Shown one piece after another: positions 15,549 through 43,306 of a stretch of DNA of 64,000 bases. Position 1 is the first letter of the stretch. Every line of letters starts with the position of its first letter. A program made the position numbers and the translations under genes. The notes beneath the pieces are model-generated. The model was not told the DNA's origin and searched no databases. It worked only from the letters and a program-made list of their open reading frames with translations. This DNA comes from a virus, in IMG/VR virus record IMGVR_UViG_3300023110_001773, positions 1 through 64,000 of that record. One strand, 5' to 3'.

Positions 15549-15727
15549 CAGTCTATATAATCCTCTTCATCTTCAAATTCAAGTTCACGTTGATTGGGAT
15601 CATAATAGTCGTCCAATCCATCGCCACAAAAAGTACAATAAGTTACTTGGTAGTGATCTTCTGACATATCATGTTTTACATGGTATGTTGCTTCGCATCT
15701 GTCGCACTCAATGTATATCGGTCTCAT
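15545..15727 (-). CDS. zinc-ribbon protein
   Basis: CDRC...CTFCG, acidic tail; typical position after nrdB. Confidence 0.7.
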   Translation of the reverse strand: MRPIYIECDRCEATYHVKHDMSEDHYQVTYCTFCGDGLDDYYDPNQRELEFEDEEDYIDW

Positions 15728-16704
15728 GCTGCTGACCCCCATACATCTCCCCAGTCACCAGACAATGCACCACGGGCATAGTCTGTTGCTCTGTTCTCAA
15801 AGAAGTTTGTGTGAGTAGGAGCATTAATCATTTCCTCGACCCAAAGCAGAGGATTCTTCTTCACCTTGAAGATACCCTTCATACCAAGAGAGATCAATCT
15901 GCGGTCTGCAATGTAACGAATATATTTTTTAACATCTTCGTTTGATAGTCCCTCCATTGGGCCCATGGCAAATGCGAGATCAATAAACTTGTCTTCCAGT
16001 GCAACCATCTTTTCTGCAATGGTGTAAATAGATGACTTCAATTTGTCGTTCCACAGTTCAAGATTCTCTTCTACATATGTGCGGAACAGTTTGATCATAG
16101 ACTCGGCGTGCATTGTTTCGTCTACAATAGACCAAGTAACAATCTGGCCCATGCCCTTCATCTTACCGTGTCGTGGAAAGTTCAACAACATAATGAAAGA
16201 GGAGAACAACTGCATACCCTCAGTAAACGCAGAGAATGCGGCAATGTTTGTTGCTACTGATTCCTTGGTGCCATTCTGATTTGATAGGTCTGTAAAGTAA
16301 TCATGCTTATCACGCATTGCTTCATACTCAAGGAATTCATTGTATGTTGACTCTGGCATTCCGAGTGTTTCAATGAGGTGAGAATAAGCCGCAACATGTA
16401 ATGCCTCTCTTGCAGCAAATCCTGCGAGCATCATGCGTACTTCTGGTTGTGGAAAATATGGCAGATAGTTTGTTACATAACCACCGGCAACATCAATGTC
16501 ACCCTGCGTAAAGAAACGAAAGATGTTAGTAAGAAACGCCTGTTCTTCTTTTGATAATTTGTTTTTCCAGTCTTTTACATCTTCTGCCATGGGAACTTCA
16601 GTGTGCAACCAATGAGACTGTTCATGTTTCAACCACGCCTCGTATGCCCAAGGATAGTTGAATGGTTTGAAGTAAGTTCTTTCTTGTGTTAAATCGGTTT
16701 TCAC
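15724..16704 (-). CDS. nrdB: ribonucleotide reductase class Ia beta subunit
   Basis: FTQGD, EALH..AY, EGMQLFSSF, DETMH, NFFE. Confidence 0.97.
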   Translation of the reverse strand: MKTDLTQERTYFKPFNYPWAYEAWLKHEQSHWLHTEVPMAEDVKDWKNKLSKEEQAFLTNIFRFFTQGDIDVAGGYVTNYLPYFPQPEVRMMLAGFAAREALHVAAYSHLIETLGMPESTYNEFLEYEAMRDKHDYFTDLSNQNGTKESVATNIAAFSAFTEGMQLFSSFIMLLNFPRHGKMKGMGQIVTWSIVDETMHAESMIKLFRTYVEENLELWNDKLKSSIYTIAEKMVALEDKFIDLAFAMGPMEGLSNEDVKKYIRYIADRRLISLGMKGIFKVKKNPLLWVEEMINAPTHTNFFENRATDYARGALSGDWGDVWGSAA

Positions 16705-25536: not shown

Positions 25537-25544
25537 TATTTATA
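25537..25544 (-). promoter_or_regulatory. T4-type late promoter
   Basis: TATAAATA. Confidence 0.75.
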
Positions 25545-27660
25545 CATGCTTCATAAAGTGATCGTGACTCTTATGGGCAGACGTTTGCATCTTATGTTTG
25601 TCAGCAGGTTTACTGTTCATATACTTGTTCAAAAATTTGGCAGCATGGCCCTTGCTGATCTTGTGCGTCTTCCCATCTTGAAACTGAACCTCTTTACCAA
25701 CAGTAATTGCTTTTCGCATCTGAGGTACAATGTGTTCGATTTCTTTTGCATTAGATGCGTCACTGACTTTTGCGGGTTTAGAGTCTTTCTTGGTAGGAGC
25801 AAGACCTTTCTTGTCATCCGCATCGTAATCTCTTTTTGCCTGAGCAAAAGCCCTGTTAGCAGCGCTCTCTTCAATCTCTTCGTTGGCAATGGCACCTTTG
25901 ATCTCTTTGCTAGTTGCACCAGCCTTCCAAGCAGAGTTTGCAAGTTTAGTGTCTTTTGGATTTTTTCTAAGTTTGTCGAGAAGTTCTTTGCGAGTACCAC
26001 CCTGTGAAGGTGCGTTGATACCAGCGATTGCAACTTCACTGATACCCTTCTTCGCCTTGAGTCTATCCTTTGCAGCAGCGGCATCTTTGTTAGAAATACG
26101 GAAACCACCCGTGTCATGTGATTCCTTATCCTTTGACATCTTGCCAGACTTAGCGTAAGAGTTCTTCATGGTGTAGTTTTCGTTCTTCGCCTTGTGTGCG
26201 TCATCTACACTGTTGAAAAACTTCTTCTTCTCTTCGTCAGACATTGATGCAAGAGACTTGCCAGTTTTCTTCAACATGGCCTGAAACTTTTCTTTGTAGG
26301 ACATTTCTGCGATTTCATCAACAGAATCTTCTTGAGACTCTTCGTTCTGTTTCTGCAATTCTTTCCTAACACGAGGATGATCAGAGAGACCTTTCTTGAC
26401 CTTTTCCATCGCCTTAGATGCACCTGTCATGTTTCCACCAGCATATCTCTTATCACGAGCAATACCCACGCCCATCTTAATATCTTTTGCAGTCATACCC
26501 TCTTCAATTTCGACTTCTTCCTTGATGCCTGGGTCTGTTTCCTTCTCGGTCTTTGCAACTTTACGAGAAAGTCTCTCAGCAGCCTTCTTGGCACGTTGGC
26601 GAGAATCTTCTGCATCGGCGGCAGGGTTCTTAGTTCTATACTCGTCTAATTTTGCCTTCTTAGCTGCAGCAAAGGGGTTGTTCGTGTTCACAGTAGTTTC
26701 CTCTTCGGTCTCTTCTTTGGAGAGTTTAGCGGCAATTGCCATCTCTCTTCTTTTTTCTTTTGACTTACCTTTAAACTGAGGGGCATCAGACTTTTGGAAG
26801 TCTTTGATAACTTCACCCATGTCCATGTCTTCGATCTTTTCGTCAAGTTCTGTTTCTTCGTTTGTGGGTTTTACTCTTTTGAATTTGCGTTCCCACACAC
26901 TATGGTCTTTTCCAGTTTGTTCACCCGCCTGTTTAAGAGTCCACCCTATGCCTGGGGGTCTTTTGCCAACTGGATGTTTAATGCGTTCTGTTTCTAACTT
27001 TTCGTCAAGTTCGACTTCTTCTTTCTTTAGTTTTTTCATCCTTTCACGATGCTTGTCGAAAACAGCTTGTTTTTCCTTTTCACTGGACTGCGGTTTCTTT
27101 CTTGCATCATACTGTCCAGTGTCAACTTCTTCACTGACAGTCTTCCAACTACCACCGGCCTTTTTATACATCTTGGCGGCCCAACCATTGGCGTAAGCAG
27201 AAGGGTAGACATCAAACTTTGATTTTGCCTGCGACTTATACTTAGACCACAATTTTGGGTTTGTTGGGACATTCTTCTCTTCAAGAGTTTCAATGTCCAA
27301 CAAAAATGTTTCCCATTCATTCAGTTCTACATCATCACTTTCATCGGCCGAGTTGATCTCACTCTCTTCGGTCTGATAGCGATTCTTTTGGGTGTGTTGT
27401 CTTGCCCGTTGAAATACCGTATCGTCACCAAGAACGATATACATCATAGAATTCAACAGAGTGTTTACTGCATCTCTTTCCTGTGGCGTTCCAACTTTTC
27501 CCATTTGTAGTTTTTCTAAACCACGTTTTAGGATGGGAAGTTTGCCTGTTGACATCAAACCCTGTCTGACCAACATATCAAGTCTTCTTGACATATCTGC
27601 TTCCAATAGGTCTGTCTGTCCAGAAGCAAGAATATCCCTGATATTTCTTTCAACTGGCAT
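25540..27660 (-). CDS. large putative internal head (poly)protein
   Basis: basic modules separated by acidic (L/I/V)xE linkers; YPSAYAN module; late promoter. Confidence 0.65.
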   Translation of the reverse strand: MPVERNIRDILASGQTDLLEADMSRRLDMLVRQGLMSTGKLPILKRGLEKLQMGKVGTPQERDAVNTLLNSMMYIVLGDDTVFQRARQHTQKNRYQTEESEINSADESDDVELNEWETFLLDIETLEEKNVPTNPKLWSKYKSQAKSKFDVYPSAYANGWAAKMYKKAGGSWKTVSEEVDTGQYDARKKPQSSEKEKQAVFDKHRERMKKLKKEEVELDEKLETERIKHPVGKRPPGIGWTLKQAGEQTGKDHSVWERKFKRVKPTNEETELDEKIEDMDMGEVIKDFQKSDAPQFKGKSKEKRREMAIAAKLSKEETEEETTVNTNNPFAAAKKAKLDEYRTKNPAADAEDSRQRAKKAAERLSRKVAKTEKETDPGIKEEVEIEEGMTAKDIKMGVGIARDKRYAGGNMTGASKAMEKVKKGLSDHPRVRKELQKQNEESQEDSVDEIAEMSYKEKFQAMLKKTGKSLASMSDEEKKKFFNSVDDAHKAKNENYTMKNSYAKSGKMSKDKESHDTGGFRISNKDAAAAKDRLKAKKGISEVAIAGINAPSQGGTRKELLDKLRKNPKDTKLANSAWKAGATSKEIKGAIANEEIEESAANRAFAQAKRDYDADDKKGLAPTKKDSKPAKVSDASNAKEIEHIVPQMRKAITVGKEVQFQDGKTHKISKGHAAKFLNKYMNSKPADKHKMQTSAHKSHDHFMKHV

Positions 27661-27695: not shown

Positions 27696-27703
27696 TATTT
27701 ATA
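27696..27703 (-). promoter_or_regulatory. T4-type late promoter
   Basis: TATAAATA. Confidence 0.75.
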
Positions 27704-30562: not shown

Positions 30563-31081
30563 TTATGTCAACCTAACACGAACAGTTCCACCGTTATCGT
30601 AGTATGCTTGGCCGATTGCAATGCCAGCAGAAGCAGCAGATGATTCATTTGTATATGGGCCAGGCAGATTCCAACCAGAACCATCTTGCAGTTCTGTAAT
30701 TGTGGTAGCGGTGGCCAACTCTGTATCCAAGTTTGCGGTCTGTAAAAATGCAGATAAGTCAACTGTATTACCATTACTTATAGTTAAATCAGTACCAGCA
30801 ATACTAAGTGTCTGCGAATCAGTATTCTGTCCTGACAAAGAACTTAGATCAGCACTATTGCCACCAGAAATGGATAGAGTATTTGTCCCAGAATCCCAAG
30901 AAATTGTTTGTGAGGAACCACCCCCACCAGTGTTTATAATAACACCGCCTGGAGTAGAACCATCAGAAATTCTGAGAGTAGTGGTGGTGGGATCATAGAA
31001 AATTTCTCCAGCAGAACCCACAAAGGTGGTTGCGTCAGACCCACCCAATTGTTCTACGAAATTTCTAAATACAGTAGTCAC
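30563..31081 (-). CDS. putative fibre/structural protein
   Basis: GEIFYD..LRISDGSTPGG fibre N-terminal motif; two QTxS..LxISxGN.xDLS repeats; probable GTG start 31081. Confidence 0.6.
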   Translation of the reverse strand: MTTVFRNFVEQLGGSDATTFVGSAGEIFYDPTTTTLRISDGSTPGGVIINTGGGGSSQTISWDSGTNTLSISGGNSADLSSLSGQNTDSQTLSIAGTDLTISNGNTVDLSAFLQTANLDTELATATTITELQDGSGWNLPGPYTNESSAASAGIAIGQAYYDNGGTVRVRLT

Positions 31082-31365
31082 TAGCAGTTCCACCTTCTTC
31101 TTGCGGCCTTACCTCTTTCGCCTGTCCAACTACGAGATCGAGCGCAGAATGATTTGCGTCTCTTTGCGTCTTTGCTACCAGGCTTTAGTTTACTGGGCGG
31201 AGTAGTAACTGCGGTTTGCAATTTAGAGCCTGGGTTTTGGCGGCGATACTTTTCGACACCTTTTTTGGTTAAGCCAGCACCTTTGCTAACAGGAAGTTTA
31301 TGACCACCCTTGACGGTCATACCCTTCATACCTTCTTCGCCCAAAAATTCTAGGAAAGTTTTCAT
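31081..31365 (-). CDS. small basic protein with capsid-targeting-like N-terminus
   Basis: MKTFLEFLGEE; KRRKSFCARS..ARRRWNC. Confidence 0.75.
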   Translation of the reverse strand: MKTFLEFLGEEGMKGMTVKGGHKLPVSKGAGLTKKGVEKYRRQNPGSKLQTAVTTPPSKLKPGSKDAKRRKSFCARSRSWTGERGKAARRRWNC

Positions 31366-33674
31366 TTCTTTTTCACCTTAAATTTCTTAGCCTTTTGTGC
31401 CGAAGCAGAAGACTTTGCGGATGAAGCTTTATACTTCTTCGCCTTCTGTGGTTTTTTGTTGGTAGATGTAAGTCGTTTCAATTCATTCTTTCTAATGATT
31501 GGAACCATTCTCTGTGCAAGTCTAGAGATCAGTCCTGTAAATCGTTTTGACATAGCCTCAATTCTAGCCTTTTCGGCAGGAGGCATGGAAGACATGTCTC
31601 TCCCTCTAGCAAGTCTGGACTTAATCATGTTTCTTGCACCACGAGTTGCCCTTCTCTTAACCCTAGCAGGATCGGCGGCTCTCCTAGATGCTCTCATTCT
31701 AGCAACTTTGAGTTTCTGTCTGTTTCTTCTAGCGTTAAAACGCCTCTTCATTCTACCTTGAATAGACAGGGCTTCAAGAATGTCCACGTTGTCGTGAATA
31801 TCTGATTCTTCATCGTCATCTTCTTCTGCTGAATCAAAGTCTTCTAATTCTTCTGAATCGTACATACCCAAACCTATCATCTCATCAAAATCCATATTGT
31901 CAATTTGAACTTCCATGTCGGCAATATCTTCCGATGTGAAGATAGAATCAACATCCATTTCCAAAACTTCCATCTCTTCTTCACATCCACAGTGTTCTTT
32001 TATTTTTAGTTTATCAAGAACCATCTGTCTAGCTTTTTGGCCAAGGTCTTTGAAGTGATATAGGTTTTCACTATCCTTTGTGTGTTTCTTACCAGTCATA
32101 ACTTGTCCATCGTGGGCGTGTTGATCACCCTTCCATTCAGTACCATCTTTCTTATAGTGACCATCGGTTTTCCACGAATGATTCTCACCTTCTTCGATCT
32201 TTGTTTTGTAGTGATATTTGTTGGTGGTTTGATTTTTCTTGGTAGTAGAGCCTGGTTCGCCTGGAGTCAAGGCCTTGAAGTATTGTGTACCTTCTGGTCT
32301 TCCCCACTCGTATCGACTAATCTGTTTGTCTTCCTTCTGATACATTTTTGCCAGAGTTCTAGCATCAACCTTGTCGGAAATCGTTCTTGCTACTTGTGCA
32401 GCATAGTATTCAATACCGTGTTTGAGTTTGCCGCCACCTTCTCTCTTCTTTCTATCGATAATAGGTTTCAGAGTTTTGAGTGCGGTGTTATAGTGAACTC
32501 TATGAACAGTTTTGGCAAGTGGGTCTTTCATCCACTGAAATGTTTCTTTTTGAGTTTTTGAGGAATCAACTGCTTTTGCAGAAGTATCCTTCATTTTCTT
32601 GATCATATCCGTATAAAACTTTTGACGGGCTTCCAAATCTATACCGTGGTGAGTTTTGAGTCGTCTATTGAGACGTTCTGCTGCAGAAAGTTTTGCTGCC
32701 TCTTTGACATCCGTCTTGACCATGATGGGTTTACCACCCTTGCCCTTTCTATCGGCAACGGGGTCTTTTCTTCTCTTGCGTCTGGCAGAAGTCGCCCTAT
32801 CGTCCTTGTCCATACTGTGTGCCTTTTGTCTCGGCATACACTTGGGTTTACCTTCGCCAGGCTCTCTTGCACATTGACCTTTGATTTCTCCATCCGTACC
32901 TACACGAACCCAATCACCTTTGGGATGATCTTTACTAAACCAATTACGGAGGTCTTCTCTTATGCCCCTCTGTTGTTTTTGGTCACGAATCCATCGTTGA
33001 GCGATATAATTATGGGAAGTTTTTACCCACCGACCAACCTTGCGATAGGCGTGCATAATTCCACTTTGATAGTCTGAACCCTCTGAGTTATCAATAATAA
33101 CAAAATCGTTTCCAAACAAGTTCTGAAACTTACCAATATTCTTTTGTGTTTCTTTCCACATGAAACCCAGTGAAACATTGTCAATAGTTCTGGCTCGATT
33201 TGCATTTCTTTTTCTAGCAGTCTCTCTGTCAGCATTGACAAAAATCATCATTGTCTGGTAACCTAGAGTCTCAAGTGCGTTTTTCTGTTTTTCTATCTTA
33301 GCGTAATCTTTACCAGTACCGTCAATGACAAGACCAAGACGCCCTTCAATATATTGGTCTTGCCTTTTATTAGTTATGTATTTTGCTCGGTCACGCATCG
33401 CCTGACCTTTTGGGCTAGAGATGAAGTCAGTAATTGCTTTTTTCGCCGGGTCTCTTCTAGAAGAGTATGATTGCATAACTCCAGCTTTCTTTAATGCATT
33501 CTCAAACGCATCATCAGAGTTGATAGTCTTTAACCCAAAAGTAGACAGTGCAGTCTGTCCAACGACAAATGACTTACCGCTACCAGGCCCGCCGGCTAAG
33601 AAAACCGCTTTGAAGATGGCAGGGTCATTGACACCTTCTTCTAGAGGTAGAAAATCTTTGAAAGTCTTATCCAT
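31362..33674 (-). CDS. P-loop kinase (zeta-toxin/Pnk-like) fused to multiple basic modules; putative internal head protein
   Basis: MDKTFKDFLPLEE; AGGPGSGKS; LVIDGTG; R..R lid; late promoter. Confidence 0.75.
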   Translation of the reverse strand: MDKTFKDFLPLEEGVNDPAIFKAVFLAGGPGSGKSFVVGQTALSTFGLKTINSDDAFENALKKAGVMQSYSSRRDPAKKAITDFISSPKGQAMRDRAKYITNKRQDQYIEGRLGLVIDGTGKDYAKIEKQKNALETLGYQTMMIFVNADRETARKRNANRARTIDNVSLGFMWKETQKNIGKFQNLFGNDFVIIDNSEGSDYQSGIMHAYRKVGRWVKTSHNYIAQRWIRDQKQQRGIREDLRNWFSKDHPKGDWVRVGTDGEIKGQCAREPGEGKPKCMPRQKAHSMDKDDRATSARRKRRKDPVADRKGKGGKPIMVKTDVKEAAKLSAAERLNRRLKTHHGIDLEARQKFYTDMIKKMKDTSAKAVDSSKTQKETFQWMKDPLAKTVHRVHYNTALKTLKPIIDRKKREGGGKLKHGIEYYAAQVARTISDKVDARTLAKMYQKEDKQISRYEWGRPEGTQYFKALTPGEPGSTTKKNQTTNKYHYKTKIEEGENHSWKTDGHYKKDGTEWKGDQHAHDGQVMTGKKHTKDSENLYHFKDLGQKARQMVLDKLKIKEHCGCEEEMEVLEMDVDSIFTSEDIADMEVQIDNMDFDEMIGLGMYDSEELEDFDSAEEDDDEESDIHDNVDILEALSIQGRMKRRFNARRNRQKLKVARMRASRRAADPARVKRRATRGARNMIKSRLARGRDMSSMPPAEKARIEAMSKRFTGLISRLAQRMVPIIRKNELKRLTSTNKKPQKAKKYKASSAKSSASAQKAKKFKVKKK

Positions 33675-33680
33675 AAGGAC

Positions 33681-33688
33681 TATTTATA
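33681..33688 (-). promoter_or_regulatory. T4-type late promoter
   Basis: TATAAATA 6 nt before ATG. Confidence 0.75.
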
Positions 33689-33899
33689 ATACCTTAACTA
33701 ACTTAGAGATAGCATCAACAACCTTAGCAGCAAGAATTTTCATACTCTCATCTTTAATATCTTCTCTGATTGATTCGATATCAGTAAAGTCTTGAACAAG
33801 TTCTTCGTATTCATCTTGGGAAATCATACCACCGTCTAAGAGTTCATTGAGTTCTCTGACTTTTTGTTCGTACTTCTTAATTAATGCGTCTTCGCTCAT
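33684..33899 (-). CDS. hypothetical protein
   Basis: GMISQDEYEE (SHOCT-like); coupled to the lipoprotein gene. Confidence 0.65.
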   Translation of the reverse strand: MSEDALIKKYEQKVRELNELLDGGMISQDEYEELVQDFTDIESIREDIKDESMKILAAKVVDAISKLVKVL

Positions 33900-34267
33900 T
33901 TCATTCTACTCCCAGCTACGGCAAGTGCCTCTTCTACTATAGAGGAAATATTTCCCCACTTGATTCTACAATAACCCTCAGACGGGTCTTGTCTGTTTCT
34001 CAACTCAGTGGTTAGATCATGAATCTGTGTATAGATTTTTTGATTTGTTTCGTTCATGGTATGTTCTGAATACTTTTCCAAGAAAGCAGAATAAGACCAT
34101 GCCAGTTGAATCTGGTCTGAGGAACAATCCTTTGTGTTTTCTGAAATTACACCCAAGTGTACCAAATTACCATATTCCACATTATCAAACTTATCTGGTA
34201 TTAAATTGCTAAGGCTAGAACACCCAACCAATACCGTTGTTAAAACACCAACTAAAAAACCTTTCAT
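33896..34267 (-). CDS. putative lipoprotein
   Basis: lipobox LVGC. Confidence 0.7.
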   Translation of the reverse strand: MKGFLVGVLTTVLVGCSSLSNLIPDKFDNVEYGNLVHLGVISENTKDCSSDQIQLAWSYSAFLEKYSEHTMNETNQKIYTQIHDLTTELRNRQDPSEGYCRIKWGNISSIVEEALAVAGSRMK

Positions 34268-34710
34268 ACTGACTCCAAACGACTCATCAACCTCTCTGCT
34301 CTGTTGGTGACCTGTTTATACCACAAAGAATCTCTTCCCTCTACTGCGGCATTTTTCCAATCACCCTCTAAGAGAGCTTCATTCATTTTTTTAAACTTGG
34401 ATAATCGGGTACGTCCCATATTAAACATCATGTTGACCAATATCTGCTGGACTTCATCGGGAAAATCTCGAAAACACCCCTCCCCGTATAAAGCATCACA
34501 TTCTCGGATTGCTGTCTCCAAATCTCTATCAAATACCTCTCTGACTCTTTCTTCGTCCACTGGAGTTCCAATTGGTTTTCCGATCTCCTCGTCACCCTCA
34601 ACGATGAGGTGTCCGACTCCGAAAGTAGGATATCCAAGGTGATCATTGTAGATTTCATACACTACACCCTCGTCTATCTTTAATTGTTCGTATACTGCCT
34701 CTCTGTTCAT
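34264..34710 (-). CDS. T4-type lysozyme (GH24)
   Basis: DEG..IYNDHLGYPTFGVGHL, NMMFNMG, SLWYKQVTNRA. Confidence 0.92.
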   Translation of the reverse strand: MNREAVYEQLKIDEGVVYEIYNDHLGYPTFGVGHLIVEGDEEIGKPIGTPVDEERVREVFDRDLETAIRECDALYGEGCFRDFPDEVQQILVNMMFNMGRTRLSKFKKMNEALLEGDWKNAAVEGRDSLWYKQVTNRAERLMSRLESV

Positions 34711-35360
34711 TTATTTGACTCCTTCAGAAACATTGAAAAGGACATTCTCACTTGGTCTTCATGAAGACCCATACCTTTTCTGGTAGCATGGAACAATTTT
34801 TTTGCCTCTTCATGAGAGGTGTTCTTATGCAAACCAGACTTAAAAGATTTATAATCATTGTTAGATGCGTGAGATCGCATCTTTGTTCCACTTATTCCAG
34901 CAACACCCGAAGCATCAGGATCACGAGCACCAGCAGATACAACTTTGAGGTGCTTAAACTTATAATATCCGTGAGAACCCTTTTTGCCATTATACTTGTC
35001 TGCAAGTTTCTGGAATTCATGAACACGATCTGATCCTGCCACCATTGTGACATGGGTGTGACCCTCTTGGTGCATTTTACTGAGGTGTGCAAAAAAGTGA
35101 GGATGGGATTGCGAAGATGCTTCAAACTTTCCGTGGGGATGAACATGTTTGAGATACCTCAATTTTTGTTTTGCTGAGAGCGGGTTTTTGTGTTTGTCCT
35201 GAGAGTGACTAACTATAACTCTATGATCAGCATTCCTCGATTTTGCTTCTGCATGAACCTTGTCTACCAATTTACTGTGACCAGCAGTAGGCGGATTCAT
35301 TCTTCCAAATGCAAACACGATATGTTTTTCTTTTTCTTCTTTTATTCTCATCTGTCCCAC
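34707..35360 (-). CDS. HIGH-family nucleotidyltransferase (phage 'cytidyltransferase', NadD-like fold)
   Basis: FGRMNPPTAGH, KNPL, AGSDR, SAGARDPD, ISGTKMR. Confidence 0.85.
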   Translation of the reverse strand: MGQMRIKEEKEKHIVFAFGRMNPPTAGHSKLVDKVHAEAKSRNADHRVIVSHSQDKHKNPLSAKQKLRYLKHVHPHGKFEASSQSHPHFFAHLSKMHQEGHTHVTMVAGSDRVHEFQKLADKYNGKKGSHGYYKFKHLKVVSAGARDPDASGVAGISGTKMRSHASNNDYKSFKSGLHKNTSHEEAKKLFHATRKGMGLHEDQVRMSFSMFLKESNK

Positions 35361-36607
35361 GCCTTGATTGCAGTGAAATTATTGTAACTGAATTCCATGC
35401 GGTCAACAAGTTTAACTGCATTACCACCAACTCTATCGATAGCAACATAACCTTCTGGATTGACAACCTTGAATCCCTGTTTGGTGCGAACAAAAGTATC
35501 CATCAACTGTTTGATAGAATTTAGTTTCCTCACAATAATCATCTTCGCATCTACCAGAGCATTTTGAAAAGCAACAATATTTCCAAGTAAAACCCTATGT
35601 TTTTTTATTTCTCTGAGAGTTTCTACTTTCTTTTTCTCCACTCTCTTCTTTGCATCGGGGGTCTTTAGTTTATTAGCAGCAAGGTCAAACTTTTCCGACA
35701 CCCAAGTTTCATAACCAGAAACATGGGTGGAAACATTGGCAATTTTCTCTCCAACCCTAACTTTGGAGTTATTGTATGTTTTGAGTGTAGCGCCAGTAGT
35801 TTTACTATCAGCTTCCAAAGCAGACTGCAATCTCATAAAATTCTTTAACTGTACAGCATCGATTTTGCGAAATAACTTTCCTGCCTCGGAAAGTTTTGCA
35901 GTTACCGATGCAGTTTCAGATTTTGTAAAGGTAGCAGTGCCACTTTCATCACGATAACTAGCATCATCCATCCACACACTTTTTATTTTTTTGAGACCAC
36001 TGATATTTGCACCAAAAGACGCTTGCATATTTTGCAAACTGTTGCCAGTATATGTGGTATGCCATACAACACCAATTCTCGCAGCCCTTATCTGATTGTC
36101 AAGATCAGAACCACGGGGAACTGCATAAACGATTGTATTTGGTTGAAATGTTGTATACCTAACATTATCAATGGTCTCGGTTTCAAGGGAACCAGAGGTA
36201 AACATCAAATCACCCTGTAGAACTCCCCTGATACCGAGTTTGCTAAATTCTTCTAATGCGATACTAAAAGGAATTTTCAATGCTTGTGGTAGTTTAGCAT
36301 CGTCTTGTATTTCTTTTTTTGTCTTATATAGTAGCGGTGTTTTGTTGAACACAGACTTCTTTGCGACAAAAAACTTCCCATCCGAGGGGTCTACACCAGC
36401 AAAGATAGCAGGGGCCCCATCCCACTTCACTGTCATGTGAACAGAGGAACGAGAACTACCAGAAAGCATATCACGCAAAGACTGTAAAAAATTAATTGCG
36501 CCCCTAGCCCCACCAATTCCGAAATTAATAATTTCGTCTTCTAGGTGTTCTAGGTGAAGATTCTTCCCTTGGGCATCTTCATTTAAATAGGATGAAAAAC
36601 TATACAT
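35348..36607 (-). CDS. conserved T4-like protein with ATP-dependent ligase motifs
   Basis: KNLHLEHLED; KWDG (motif I), QGDLM (III), EGYV (IV), VKLV (V). Confidence 0.65.
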   Translation of the reverse strand: MYSFSSYLNEDAQGKNLHLEHLEDEIINFGIGGARGAINFLQSLRDMLSGSSRSSVHMTVKWDGAPAIFAGVDPSDGKFFVAKKSVFNKTPLLYKTKKEIQDDAKLPQALKIPFSIALEEFSKLGIRGVLQGDLMFTSGSLETETIDNVRYTTFQPNTIVYAVPRGSDLDNQIRAARIGVVWHTTYTGNSLQNMQASFGANISGLKKIKSVWMDDASYRDESGTATFTKSETASVTAKLSEAGKLFRKIDAVQLKNFMRLQSALEADSKTTGATLKTYNNSKVRVGEKIANVSTHVSGYETWVSEKFDLAANKLKTPDAKKRVEKKKVETLREIKKHRVLLGNIVAFQNALVDAKMIIVRKLNSIKQLMDTFVRTKQGFKVVNPEGYVAIDRVGGNAVKLVDRMEFSYNNFTAIKAWDR

Positions 36608-36612
36608 ACCAC

Positions 36613-36620
36613 TATTTATA
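36613..36620 (-). promoter_or_regulatory. T4-type late promoter
   Basis: TATAAATA 5 nt before ATG. Confidence 0.75.
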
Positions 36621-40869: not shown

Positions 40870-41196
40870 TTATTTACCTTTACTAAAAGCCTGTGCGCCA
40901 AAGAAAGCGGCAACAATACCAGCAACAGCAACAAAATAAGTAGGTGCCATGTCGCCAAGAGTACCTTGTGCTTGATCAAGACCGGCGAGAGAAGCAATAA
41001 CCACTGCAAACGGGTAAAGCAACATTCCAAAGAGGGCAAACCAAGCCATCTTTCGTTGACTGTCTCGCATGGCATCCTGATCTTCAAGTTCTTTCCTCTT
41101 GAATTCCATGTACATCGCATGTTCTTCTGCGCTTACTTTACCATCACCGTTGGTGTCGGCTGGATGAAATTCTTTACTCGTTGTTTCTTCCGTCAT
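40870..41196 (-). CDS. EF-hand + 2-TM membrane protein, holin candidate
   Basis: DTNGDGKVSAEE; two TM helices; directly after the spanin pair. Confidence 0.55.
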   Translation of the reverse strand: MTEETTSKEFHPADTNGDGKVSAEEHAMYMEFKRKELEDQDAMRDSQRKMAWFALFGMLLYPFAVVIASLAGLDQAQGTLGDMAPTYFVAVAGIVAAFFGAQAFSKGK

Positions 41197-41593
41197 CTGT
41201 AACTTCCTCTTTAGGTTCTTCATCATTTGAAGTCACAGTACGATAATATATAATCACTTCTCTAGTTTCTTTTACAAACCTCTTGATTTCTTGGAGGTTG
41301 TAAGCCATTAGTTCGTAATCGCCTGGGGTCATTGCAAAGAATACACCGCCAGTTTCTTTTTGAATTCGCTGCATGAACTCTTCGATATTCTTTTCAGACA
41401 CCACATACCAATTGGGGTCTTTCATGTCGATGGGTCTCGGCATGACGGGATGCTGAATTGGAATCTTCATCTCGACAGTTCTAATTTCAACTTCTCTGGG
41501 CGCCTGTTTCATCAGCGCACATCCACTAAGGATCAGGATCGAAGTCGTAATTACTGTCGCTTTCCAAACTGTCGAAAACTTCTTTGGTAGCAT
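41174..41593 (-). CDS. o-spanin-like lipoprotein
   Basis: lipobox LSGC, Pro-rich segment, overlaps the i-spanin gene. Confidence 0.7.
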   Translation of the reverse strand: MLPKKFSTVWKATVITTSILILSGCALMKQAPREVEIRTVEMKIPIQHPVMPRPIDMKDPNWYVVSEKNIEEFMQRIQKETGGVFFAMTPGDYELMAYNLQEIKRFVKETREVIIYYRTVTSNDEEPKEEVTDDGRNNE

Positions 41594-41909
41594 TATTAAC
41601 TCTCGGTTCTATTAAGCCTGGTTTTGCAGCGGCCAGTTTAGACAAATCATGTCTACGAAAAATATCCAAATACCGATCTCTTTCAGCAATAATCTCTGCA
41701 TTTTTGGATGTCAAATCCATGAGAGCCTGTGCTTGCAATTGGTACTGACTATTCATTTTATCTATGGTTTCATCTTGGGTTTGAGTCTTGAGTTCCAACG
41801 CCATGTTGTATTCTCTCAACTCAATGAGCTCAGCTTGGGTCTGGGTGTAGTAGAGATACCCTACCGCACCGCCCGCAAGAATGACACCAAATAGTATTTT
41901 ACTAAACAT
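41526..41909 (-). CDS. i-spanin-like protein
   Basis: N-terminal TM plus periplasmic coiled coil; late promoter. Confidence 0.7.
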   Translation of the reverse strand: MFSKILFGVILAGGAVGYLYYTQTQAELIELREYNMALELKTQTQDETIDKMNSQYQLQAQALMDLTSKNAEIIAERDRYLDIFRRHDLSKLAAAKPGLIEPRVNNATKEVFDSLESDSNYDFDPDP

Positions 41910-41914
41910 AATTA

Positions 41915-41922
41915 TATTTATA
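41915..41922 (-). promoter_or_regulatory. T4-type late promoter
   Basis: TATAAATA 5 nt before ATG. Confidence 0.75.
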
Positions 41923-43306
41923 ATTTAATTGAACCTAAGTTAGCACGAGAACCGAAATCGGTTTTATCAAAGATTGGTTCGTCTGGAATGGATTGTCCAG
42001 AGTCGTGGATACCATCTTGTGCCGCTTCATCGAGATCATACAATCTCATTTTAGCACGATCAACACCAATCATGAATCGTTTGTTGCGAGTAGGATCACT
42101 GTAACGATTCTTCAACTGTTTCACCATGATATGACCCTGTTGTTCCAACTCTTCGGTGGAAATTAGGGCAAACATCAAGTCTGCGGTTGCGGGGAGACCA
42201 AAAGATTCTGAAGTATCTGTCAGATCAACATCACTGTTGTTGTATCCACCACGGGTTGTCTGTGTTGCAGTGACAATCGGCACATCAAACTCAACAGCAA
42301 GTCCACGCATTTCTTCTGCAATGCTCTTGACAATGGTGTAGGAATTCGCACCAACATTTCCACGGAGTCTTTGACTCACACAGATATTTAGGTAGTCAAC
42401 ATAGATGATGTCTGGGATGAAGTTCTGTTTGACTTTCAGTTCTTCAAGTAGTGTACGGAAGTGTCCAACGTGAGCAGAGGCAGTCGGATACTCTTTGATA
42501 ATCAAACGTCCATCGATCTTGTTCTTGATCTTTTCGACCCGATCATCAAACATTTTCTTAGACAGATCACGCAAGTCTGTGATTGGCACATTCATCATGT
42601 TGGCATCGATACGTTCTGCGATGCGTTCCTCTGCCATTTCCAGTGTGATATACAAAACATTCTTACTCTGTTCGATACAGGCTGCGGCACAGTGACACAT
42701 GAACAGAGACTTACCAACACCAGTACCAGCAAGTGCCACATTGAGAGTCTTGTTACTCAGTCCACCCTCGGTGATCCTGTTGAAGTAGTCAAGATCAAAT
42801 GGCAATTTCTCTTCTTCTCGGTGGTAAAAATCATATCGCATGTCAGCATCAGCAACATAATCATGACCAACGTGGTTATCAAATCCTACGCTGAGTGCAT
42901 CTGACAATATACTAGGCAAAGAATCTACGGTGTGTAGTTTGTCTTGACCATCGATGATTTGAATAGACTGCATGATGGCATTGTAAACTGCCTTATCCTT
43001 GCAAAACTTTTCTGACTGATCAACTAACCAATTCAAATCAGAAGAGACATTAGACAATCCATTGATAAGTTCTTCCGACTTGGCATACAAGTCTTCAGTA
43101 ATTTTTCTATTGTTTTGTAAAGAGATTAGTAGAGCATTTTTTGATGGACATGCATTGTACTTTTGAAAATGTTCGGCAATTGATGCAAACACTGTTCTAT
43201 GTTCTACATCAAGAAAGTAATCCTCTCTTAGAAATGCAATAACCTTTCGTGCATATTCCTCATCAAATATCAGATTCGATAATATTTCTGTCTCTAATCT
43301 CATCAA
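41918..43306 (-). CDS. 41: replicative DNA helicase (T4 gp41)
   Basis: AGTGVGKS, ITLEMAEE, IYVDYLNI, SESFGLPATAD, KNRY. Confidence 0.97.
   Translation of the reverse strand: MMRLETEILSNLIFDEEYARKVIAFLREDYFLDVEHRTVFASIAEHFQKYNACPSKNALLISLQNNRKITEDLYAKSEELINGLSNVSSDLNWLVDQSEKFCKDKAVYNAIMQSIQIIDGQDKLHTVDSLPSILSDALSVGFDNHVGHDYVADADMRYDFYHREEEKLPFDLDYFNRITEGGLSNKTLNVALAGTGVGKSLFMCHCAAACIEQSKNVLYITLEMAEERIAERIDANMMNVPITDLRDLSKKMFDDRVEKIKNKIDGRLIIKEYPTASAHVGHFRTLLEELKVKQNFIPDIIYVDYLNICVSQRLRGNVGANSYTIVKSIAEEMRGLAVEFDVPIVTATQTTRGGYNNSDVDLTDTSESFGLPATADLMFALISTEELEQQGHIMVKQLKNRYSDPTRNKRFMIGVDRAKMRLYDLDEAAQDGIHDSGQSIPDEPIFDKTDFGSRANLGSIKL

Follow-up and report, generated by a model that had tools for sequence, protein, structure and literature searches.

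The genes at positions 31081-36620 of the viral DNA analysed here raise the question of why several enzymes that appear to act on nucleotides or nucleic acids begin with sequences resembling the signal that directs internal proteins of bacteriophage T4 into the capsid, and what such enzymes would do if they travelled in the phage head. The analysed DNA, referred to below as the window, is the first 64 kb (64,000 nucleotides) of the 165.6-kb virus record IMGVR_UViG_3300023110_001773, which is rated complete. An initial annotation had read the block as a kit of enzymes that is packaged in the head and injected with the DNA, and the open reading frames (ORFs), both late promoters, the three N-terminal leaders and the four ligase motifs on which it relied are all in place. 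We conclude, with a probability of roughly 0.6, that marine myophages of the Kyanoviridae type share this block as a conserved module of late genes for head cargo, whose enzymes may act on nucleic-acid ends.

Every gene of the block is on the minus strand, and four products are candidate cargo: 1) a 419-aa DUF6267 protein that resembles covalent nucleotidyltransferases of the ligase fold (35348..36607), 2) a HIGH-type nucleotidyltransferase called as an ORF of 217 aa (34707-35360), for which the ATG at 35351 is the likelier start and gives 214 aa (34707..35351), 3) a 770-aa polyprotein-like protein headed by a kinase (31362..33674) and 4) a 94-aa DUF6321 protein (31081..31365; Pfam PF19846, E 3.3e-12). 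Their isoelectric points (pI) are 9.6, 10.0, 9.8 and 11.1, respectively. The stop codon of the DUF6267 gene overlaps the ATG of the 214-aa transferase gene as ATGA, and the 770-aa and DUF6321 genes overlap in the same way. The block lies downstream of genes for DNA polymerase, UvsX and a gp41-type helicase (helicase 41918-43306), and a homologous block occupies the same position in Methylophilales phage Melnitz, pelagiphage HTVC008M and cyanophages S-PM2 and S-SM1. The nearest isolate is Melnitz (family Kyanoviridae), with 63.7% protein identity over the 419-aa protein; a megablast search of the block against phage records gave no DNA match, and the relatives were found at the protein level only.

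N-terminal leaders and late promoters

The mechanism by which a capsid-targeting sequence (CTS) brings T4 proteins into the head is textbook knowledge. Three of the four candidate cargo proteins begin with a comparable leader, namely MYSFSSYLNE in DUF6267 (residues 1-10; 36578..36607, minus strand), MDKTFKDFLPLEE in the 770-aa protein (residues 1-13; 33636..33674, minus strand) and MKTFLEFLGE (MKTFLEFLGEE) in the DUF6321 protein (31336-31365, minus strand). Each leader ends in an [LI]xE site (L-N-E10, L-E-E13 immediately before G14, and L-G-E10, respectively), and the aromatic residues at the targeting positions are F4/Y7, F5/F8 (offset by one residue) and F4/F7. The transferase of the present phage has no leader of its own.

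Leader similarity was scored with a matrix built from residues 1-10 of 78 DUF6267 representatives that belong to other phages, the present genome being left out to prevent circularity, and applied to all 1917 ATG-initiated N-termini on both strands of the 165.6-kb genome. The 94-aa protein ranked 1st, the 770-aa protein 4th (with the one-residue offset) and DUF6267 5th. As a positive control, the same matrix applied to the whole T4 genome (1549 N-termini) placed ipI 2nd, ipIII 3rd and ipII 4th. The information content of the matrix is highest at positions 4 (Phe), 7 (Tyr/Phe), 8 (Leu/Ile) and 10 (Glu); in the IPIII leader of T4, residues 4 and 7 serve targeting and residues 8 and 10 processing (review of Black's work, PMC9026906), and the T4 CTS is given as MKTYQEFIAE in a source that also describes the T4 internal proteins as highly basic (PMC8442874). 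Judged from residue conservation, the conserved leader positions coincide with the experimentally defined T4 targeting and cleavage positions. The likeness to the T4 signal pointed out in the initial annotation is matched both statistically and position by position. Our literature search found no paper that ties a capsid-targeting sequence to cyanophages or related phages.

The leader appears to be a separable element. Residues 1-12 are disordered in the AlphaFold2 (AF2) models of both DUF6267, where the predicted local distance difference test (pLDDT) score is below 50, and the 770-aa protein. The DUF6267 leader is kept in 78/110 family representatives (it is present in ~70-80% of family members), and a leader is common to all kinase-polyprotein homologues inspected with full N-termini and to nearly all small DUF6321 proteins inspected. 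About 60% of the transferase ORFs of other phages also carry it, at a point where strand 1 of the Rossmann fold follows immediately, so that the same leader stands on the unrelated families DUF6267, kinase, DUF6321 and, in other phages, transferase. P0357, a metagenomic homologue of the 770-aa protein, has lost the kinase domain, and its leader MEKSFKDFVP runs straight into the C-terminal half, an arrangement that a modular signal would allow. The genome also encodes a gp21-family prohead protease (PF03420, 137.8 bits; genome 72306-72752).

Three further N-termini stand out in the same searches. The top scorer in T4 is the hypothetical 54-aa gp61.1 (NC_000866 18966-19130, minus strand), which starts MKTFKEFIKED and may have gone unnoticed as a capsid-targeted protein. 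Outside the window, directly upstream of the gp21-type protease, a 114-aa protein starting MKTFRDFREEAK (genome 73208-73552, minus strand) ranks 2nd-3rd of 1917 and, judging by its N-terminus and position, is probably a further head-core or cargo protein. Finally, an internal ATG of a 326-aa ORF in the window (15724-16098, minus strand) opens MIKLFRTYVEE, which ranks 2nd when the offset is allowed, either by chance or because translation does start there.

As with the T4 internal proteins, a late promoter motif precedes the cargo genes: the T4-type sequence TATAAATA stands before both operon starts, at 36613..36620 (minus strand), 5 nt before the ATG with which the 419-aa gene begins, and at 33681..33688 (minus strand), 6 nt before that of the 770-aa gene. 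The window holds 7 copies, all of them (7/7) on the coding strand, compared with a chance expectation of 2.56 for both strands together. Enrichment upstream of homologues is modest (9/61 for DUF6267 versus 27/533 for other ORFs) because many homologues lie inside longer operons. In the window, the spacing between TATAAATA and the ATG is bimodal, with 5-6 nt at 36613, 33681 and 41915 and 31-42 nt at 25537, 27696 and 48603, and the same two spacing classes are seen upstream of homologues in other viral loci. The short spacing would yield leaderless or nearly leaderless late mRNAs.

Because both promoters come within 5-6 nt of the ATG, constraint at the nucleic-acid level might act on the first codons, and the shared N-terminus might then be a translation-initiation or mRNA feature of late genes, or else a generic amphipathic helix, on proteins that are ordinary late cytoplasmic enzymes. 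We regard this as very improbable. Conservation is at the amino-acid level and is found with and without an adjacent promoter, including in the 94-aa gene, which starts in an ATGA overlap; a third gene with the 5-nt spacing, the spanin gene at 41909, lacks the motif; the profile recovers three proven T4 CTS proteins; and a leader-bearing homologue has been found in a virion.

Virion evidence from relatives

That homologue belongs to cyanophage S-SM1, in whose purified virions the 'cytitidyltransferase' T4-GC190 was detected (Sullivan et al. 2010, PMC3037559). T4-GC190 is the homologue of the 214-aa transferase, with 39-43% identity and a syntenic position (tblastn coordinates in P-SSM4 and P-SSM7; annotation of PSSM4_155). 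Two genes downstream of T4-GC190 are also marked structural in S-SM1 (File S1, PMC3037559); the row numbers of File S1 are shifted in the text, and the two genes are so marked under either reading of the shift. In S-SM1 the transferase starts MKKFSAFLNE and SSM1_192 starts MLSFKELQE, whereas DUF6267 has no leader. The leader-bearing proteins are listed for the virion and the leaderless DUF6267 is not, which indicates that leader and virion presence go together in this one proteome. Virions of S-CREM2 likewise contain a cytidylyltransferase, likened to the 214-aa protein by name only, and a kinase, and such enzymes are often found in cyanophage virion proteomes (PMC10665884).

Two points tell against packaging. 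The DUF6267 homologue T4-GC71 is not marked structural in S-SM1 (File S1, PMC3037559), and the S-CREM2 authors note that abundant late proteins may co-purify with virions (PMC10665884). Taking both sides together, packaging is well supported but indirect, with experimental backing from the virion proteomes of relatives; for the particular proteins of this block, we infer that they probably are head cargo.

Fold of the DUF6267 protein

The 419-aa protein is a full-length member of DUF6267 (Pfam E 5e-99), a mostly marine-viral family of 2577 clusters at 50% identity; our literature search found no paper on it. Its motifs read K61-W-D-G, Q131-G-D-L-M, E385-G-Y-V and V398-K-L-V. In an alignment of 111 diverse homologues, K61, D63, G64, Q131, G132, D133, E385, G386 and K399 are 96-100% conserved, and the most conserved positions of the family are K61, D63 and G64, then Q131, G132 and D133, the segment F154-P-N-T-I-x-Y161, E385 and G386, and finally K399, D402 and R403. 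Motif I (KWDG; 36416..36427, minus strand) holds the candidate nucleotidyl-lysine K61 (109/111), together with D63 (109/111) and G64 (108/111), while motifs IV and V, EGYV ... VKLVDR (E385, G386, K399, D402, R403; 35399..35455, minus strand), contain the invariant G386 and K399 and E385 in 109/111. Motifs I, III, IIIa, IV and V (K61xDG, D133, F154, E385-G386 and K399) are therefore nearly invariant and in canonical order, from which a residue-by-residue equivalence to the ligase motifs can be inferred.

The structural model, built with 110 diverse homologues, has a pLDDT of 92.4 and a predicted template modelling score (pTM) of 0.89, and it shows the nucleotidyltransferase fold by which covalent nucleotidyltransferases are recognised. 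A Foldseek search with the whole model returned nothing significant. In a second structure search, ligases made up 49 of the best 50 rows, RNA ligases being best, and the ligase alignments span residues ~10-413 and bridge a helical domain of ~135 residues that is inserted between motifs IIIa and IV (residues 229-363 by DSSP of the model; 35519..35923, minus strand). This domain matches only generic helical bundles and is the sole extra domain, since only a short helix follows motif V in the model. Ahead of the fold stands a conserved HLEHLED segment. A search of the ESM Atlas gave unnamed viral clusters only.

Several observations speak against the ligase assignment. The protein matches no ligase model in Pfam or NCBIfam; neither phmmer nor a hidden Markov model of the 111 homologues finds a match among Protein Data Bank (PDB) sequences; hhalign gives a probability below 1% against T4 Rnl2 alone, and likewise against an 18-sequence Rnl2 profile, a shallow one (Neff 2.7); motif V has a single Lys instead of KxK; and the model contains no OB or other known nucleic-acid-binding domain. 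In the comparison with Rnl1 and Rnl2 suggested in the initial annotation, the structure search favours RNA ligases, and the sequence comparison, made with Rnl2, gives no match. Its description of the protein as RNA-ligase-like, with these four motifs and without an OB domain, agrees with the near-invariant motifs and with the best structure matches. On the strength of the model, a ligase-type nucleotidyltransferase fold is quite likely; RNA ligase would be its best, if unproven, subtype.

Is DUF6267, then, the ligase that these phages have seemed to lack? Models PF01068, PF01653 and PF09414 find no ligase in the complete genome or in Melnitz, HTVC008M, S-PM2 and S-SM1, and in the control T4 was positive for the DNA_ligase_A_M and RNA_ligase models. 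Cyanomyoviruses have been described as having no recognisable g30, rnlA or pseT, and distant homologues that escaped identification were left possible (PMC2984593, PMC1079782). DUF6267 (T4-GC71) is present in 16/16 cyanophages of Sullivan 2010, belongs in all relatives examined to the replication cluster, where it comes downstream of gp43, uvsX and gp41, and in cyanophages has no leader and has not been seen in virions. It could accordingly be a replicative or repair DNA ligase analogous to T4 gp30, with the kinase standing in for pseT, both acting in the infected cell and the N-terminal motif being no packaging signal, or one only secondarily. We consider this explanation unlikely. In the present phage the gene sits directly behind a late promoter, the leader is carried by the bulk of the family (the ~70-80% given above), no OB or other nick-sensing domain is present, reviewers of the field have held the host ligase to be sufficient, and the obligate link to the HIGH-type transferase would be left unexplained. 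DUF6267 may also be both things, i.e., the missing ligase that is cargo in most lineages and perhaps intracellular in the leaderless ones.

The HIGH-type nucleotidyltransferase

The transferase matches Pfam PF01467 (CTP_transf_like) with 23.5 bits against a cut-off of 21 and phrog_3041 with E 2.8e-64. It carries the signatures GRMNPPTAGH (TAGH) and ISGTKMR, which 10 diverse homologues from phages, the jumbo phages RaK2 and PA5oct among them, also retain. As far as the sequence alone can place it, it is confirmed at the family level only as a HIGH/TxGH Rossmann nucleotidyltransferase, and it is to that level that the NadD-fold assignment of the initial annotation holds. A phmmer search against PDB gave no match, the ESM Atlas returned viral CTP_transf_like clusters only, and no match to a subfamily of nicotinamide mononucleotide adenylyltransferase (NMNAT), phosphopantetheine adenylyltransferase (PPAT) or glycerol-3-P cytidylyltransferase was obtained.

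A cofactor pathway offers a second alternative to end repair. Under it, the trio would serve counter-defence or host takeover, with kinase and transferase forming a NadR-like or CoA-synthase-like pair (PPAT plus dephospho-CoA kinase) and DUF6267 being a cofactor-using adenylyltransferase. The transferase has weak matches to NadR-type NMNAT (TIGR01526, E 1.1e-3; phrog_3462, E 6.9e-4), and a ten-sequence family profile searched against PDB matches NadD (E 0.08), PPAT (E 0.14) and NadR (E 0.88); the TxGH variant of the HIGH motif is the PPAT form. Dephospho-CoA kinases are among the Foldseek matches of the kinase, one source annotates a kinase homologue as such, and the S-CREM2 paper proposes an NMNAT role for the virion cytidylyltransferase (PMC10665884). 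These matches, however, cover the two generic signature motifs only and stay far below cut-offs (18.3 bits against 341 for TIGR01526), the best profile match is instead MJ0951/UPF0348 (E 3.8e-5, again in the signature motifs only), and nothing ties a ligase-fold enzyme to cofactor synthesis. We consider the cofactor pathway quite improbable. The NAD counter-defence offered in the initial annotation comes down to weak motif-level matches to NMN adenylyltransferases.

The putative 770-aa kinase polyprotein

The 770-aa protein starts with a P-loop kinase, confirmed at the family level only. The kinase domain (residues 14-240; 32955..33635, minus strand as are all regions of this protein) has invariant GGPGSGKS (residues 28-35), D54, D118-G-T-G and R156/R160/R162, and matches Pfam Zeta_toxin (E 4.8e-9, 36.4 bits versus a cut-off of 22.3) and AAA_33 (E 2.6e-8, 34.7 bits versus 27). 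Foldseek gives 97 PDB matches at E<=1e-3, all of them kinases among the matches listed, with the kinase domain of Clostridium thermocellum Pnkp (4gp7, E 4.4e-5) at the top. The invariant Asp D54 follows strand 2, which we take to suggest a hydroxyl-group kinase; this would fit riboside and polynucleotide substrates alike and does not discriminate between them. The Pnk/zeta-like label of the initial annotation stands in so far as Zeta_toxin, AAA_33 and the Pnkp fold match go, and does not stand as a sequence relationship to Pnk or as to a fused phosphatase, no phosphatase family having been found in the 770-aa protein with Pfam or PHROG, unlike in T4 Pnk/pseT.

Four regions follow the kinase: a conserved Cys-containing basic module bounded by I-R-E and V-K-E sites (residues 241-325; 32700..32954; phrog_12753, phrog_23735), a homologous piece of which occurs in cyanophages and was once annotated 'structural protein'; a helical region with a disordered stretch in the AF2 model (residues 326-560; 31995..32699); an acidic linker with 32 D+E and 0 K+R that ends in an I-L-E site (residues 561-634; 31773..31994); and a highly basic, internal-protein-like C-terminal helical module with a pI of 12.0 (residues 635-770; 31365..31772). 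The model consists of confident domains separated by disordered linkers. The seven [LIV]xE sites (7/7) all lie in or beside low-pLDDT segments, which make up ~39% of the chain, and the 227-residue kinase domain contains 0 of 7. Five sites are conserved in homologues: the leader L-x-E in 48/48 of those aligned, I-R-E and V-K-E of the Cys module in 39/43 and 21/23, and two others in 15/16 and 40/47. In the light of the model, the protein looks like a protease-cut polyprotein made up of kinase, Cys-containing basic module, helical part, acidic spacer and a C-terminal piece of pI 12. Elsewhere in the window, a basic 706-aa protein (25540-27660, minus strand; pI 9.3) with 11 [LI]xE sites and a late promoter at 27696-27703 looks like a second such polyprotein.

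Functional linkage and proposed mechanism

Some DUF6267 representatives are fused to the kinase (kinase-DUF6267) and others to the transferase, the latter in either order. In a set of 80 viral loci obtained with the transferase profile, transferase-kinase fusions occur at 22 and DUF6267-transferase fusions at 4, and 63 separate DUF6267 ORFs lie <=4 kb from the transferase, a proximity seen at most loci. All three pairwise fusions of DUF6267, transferase and kinase thus exist in nature, which speaks for a common task of the three enzymes; together these fusions define a new enzyme triad.

We propose that the three proteins that have a T4-type leader (aromatics at 4 and 7, [LI]-x-E at 8-10), namely DUF6267, the kinase polyprotein and DUF6321, would use this leader to dock on the scaffolding core of the prohead, and that the gp21-type prohead protease would then cut it off after the Glu. 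The same protease would cut the 770-aa protein at the conserved [LIV]xE sites in its disordered linkers, releasing the kinase, small basic modules and the very basic C-terminal piece. The leaderless HIGH-type transferase would be made by translational coupling to DUF6267 and probably rides in as its partner, because the two are fused in many relatives. The basic mature proteins would be stored alongside the DNA and pass into the cell together with it, and in the cytoplasm the three enzymes would act together; most likely the ligase-fold enzyme, through a Lys61-nucleoside monophosphate intermediate, and the kinase would heal and seal broken ends of RNA or DNA. Cleavage, injection and all of the enzyme activities are what we infer from the genes and models.

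It is the pairing of kinase and ligase, together with their structural neighbours, that points to the healing and sealing of polynucleotide ends, and this makes RNA or DNA end repair a plausible function on the predicted structures. Weighing against it, an end-repair scheme leaves the nucleotidyltransferase without a role, a phosphoesterase to heal 3' ends is missing, the kinase domain has no match anywhere in T4, and the attempt to assign the kinase by fold failed, adenylate and dephospho-CoA kinases being tied with Pnkp so that polynucleotide and nucleotide kinases are not separable. We accordingly hold polynucleotide ligase-plus-kinase chemistry only tentatively, at somewhat less than even odds. 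A wider picture, that Kyanoviridae-type myophages (cyanophages, pelagiphages and methylophages) do have a ligase and a kinase, in divergent form and working with a HIGH-type transferase, that many lineages deliver the trio in the capsid, and that end repair, or some nucleotidylation reaction, could start at DNA entry, before phage gene expression, is doubtful as a whole.

If the proposal is true, the T4 capsid-targeting mechanism, so far documented mainly for small anti-restriction proteins of coliphages, would extend to the most abundant myophages of the ocean as a general way of loading enzymes into virions. DUF6267, a core gene of cyanomyoviruses, would gain a testable fold-level assignment as a ligase-type nucleotidyltransferase, which bears on a question from 2005-2010, namely the reason for the apparent absence of a ligase, an RNA ligase and a polynucleotide kinase from these phages. 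Cytidylyltransferases and kinases have already been reported in cyanophage virions. New here are the T4 positive control for the leader profile and the agreement with the CTS positions that mutation has defined, the observation that leader and virion presence match in S-SM1, the completeness of the set of pairwise fusions, the location of protease sites within linkers, and the link to the missing ligase.

Other genes in and around the block

Three genes inside the interval do not look like cargo and went unmentioned in the initial annotation. They encode a T4 e-type lysozyme of 148 aa without a leader (34264..34710; Pfam Phage_lysozyme, E 1e-8; PHROG endolysin / tail lysozyme; pI 4.7), a predicted lipoprotein of 123 aa with an LVGC lipobox and no family match in Pfam and PHROG searches (33896..34267; pI 5.3), and an acidic protein of 71 aa with a weak SHOCT-like match (33684..33899), all on the minus strand; the pI values of the three are 4.4-5.3. 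The cargo genes flank the lysozyme gene, as ipII and ipIII do in T4 (65416-66997), and the position of lysozyme between cargo genes in both phages may be a remnant of a common gene order. The helicase gene is followed directly downstream by two Rz-like spanin genes (window 41174-41909, minus strand), the first of them behind a TATAAATA that abuts its ATG; the lysozyme gene is 7 kb away, within the cargo block.

Comparison with known systems

The block is close in plan to the internal proteins of T4 (IPI, IPII, IPIII and also Alt), with which it shares a leader of 10-13 residues with aromatics at 4 and 7 and [LI]xE at 8-10, late expression as read from the promoter motif, predicted basic mature proteins, a gp21-type protease, and genes beside an e-type lysozyme. 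It differs from them in that the cargo consists of large enzymes and a multi-domain polyprotein instead of small inhibitor proteins, in that one partner seems to be loaded although it has no leader, and in that cleavage and ejection are here predicted from the genes. In comparison with the virion cytidylyltransferases and kinases of cyanophages (T4-GC190; S-SM1 and S-CREM2), the present transferase is a minimal leaderless form coupled to DUF6267; the S-SM1 and S-CREM2 papers mention neither a leader nor protease sites, the ligase fold of the neighbour or fusions.

Set against the RNA ligases Rnl2/REL1, Rnl5 (Naegleria NgrRnl), Rnl1 and the ligase domain of Trl1, DUF6267 has no detectable sequence homology, its ~135-residue helical insert between motifs IIIa and IV replaces the appended N- or C-terminal domain, an HLEHLED segment precedes the fold, and motif V has a single Lys. 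The coupling, and sometimes fusion, of a P-loop kinase to a ligase-fold enzyme recalls T4 Pnk plus Rnl1, bacterial Pnkp (kinase-phosphatase-ligase) and fungal Trl1 (ligase-kinase-cyclic phosphodiesterase), but here there is no phosphatase or cyclic-phosphodiesterase module, a HIGH-type transferase is the third partner, and the enzymes are tagged for the virion.

Giant phages such as SPN3US and phiKZ carry large head-internal ejection polyproteins that are cut at x-x-E by a gp21-like prohead protease. The 770-aa protein resembles them, being large and predicted to be cut at x-x-E sites into several pieces, whereas the protein families are different and the phage that encodes them is much smaller.

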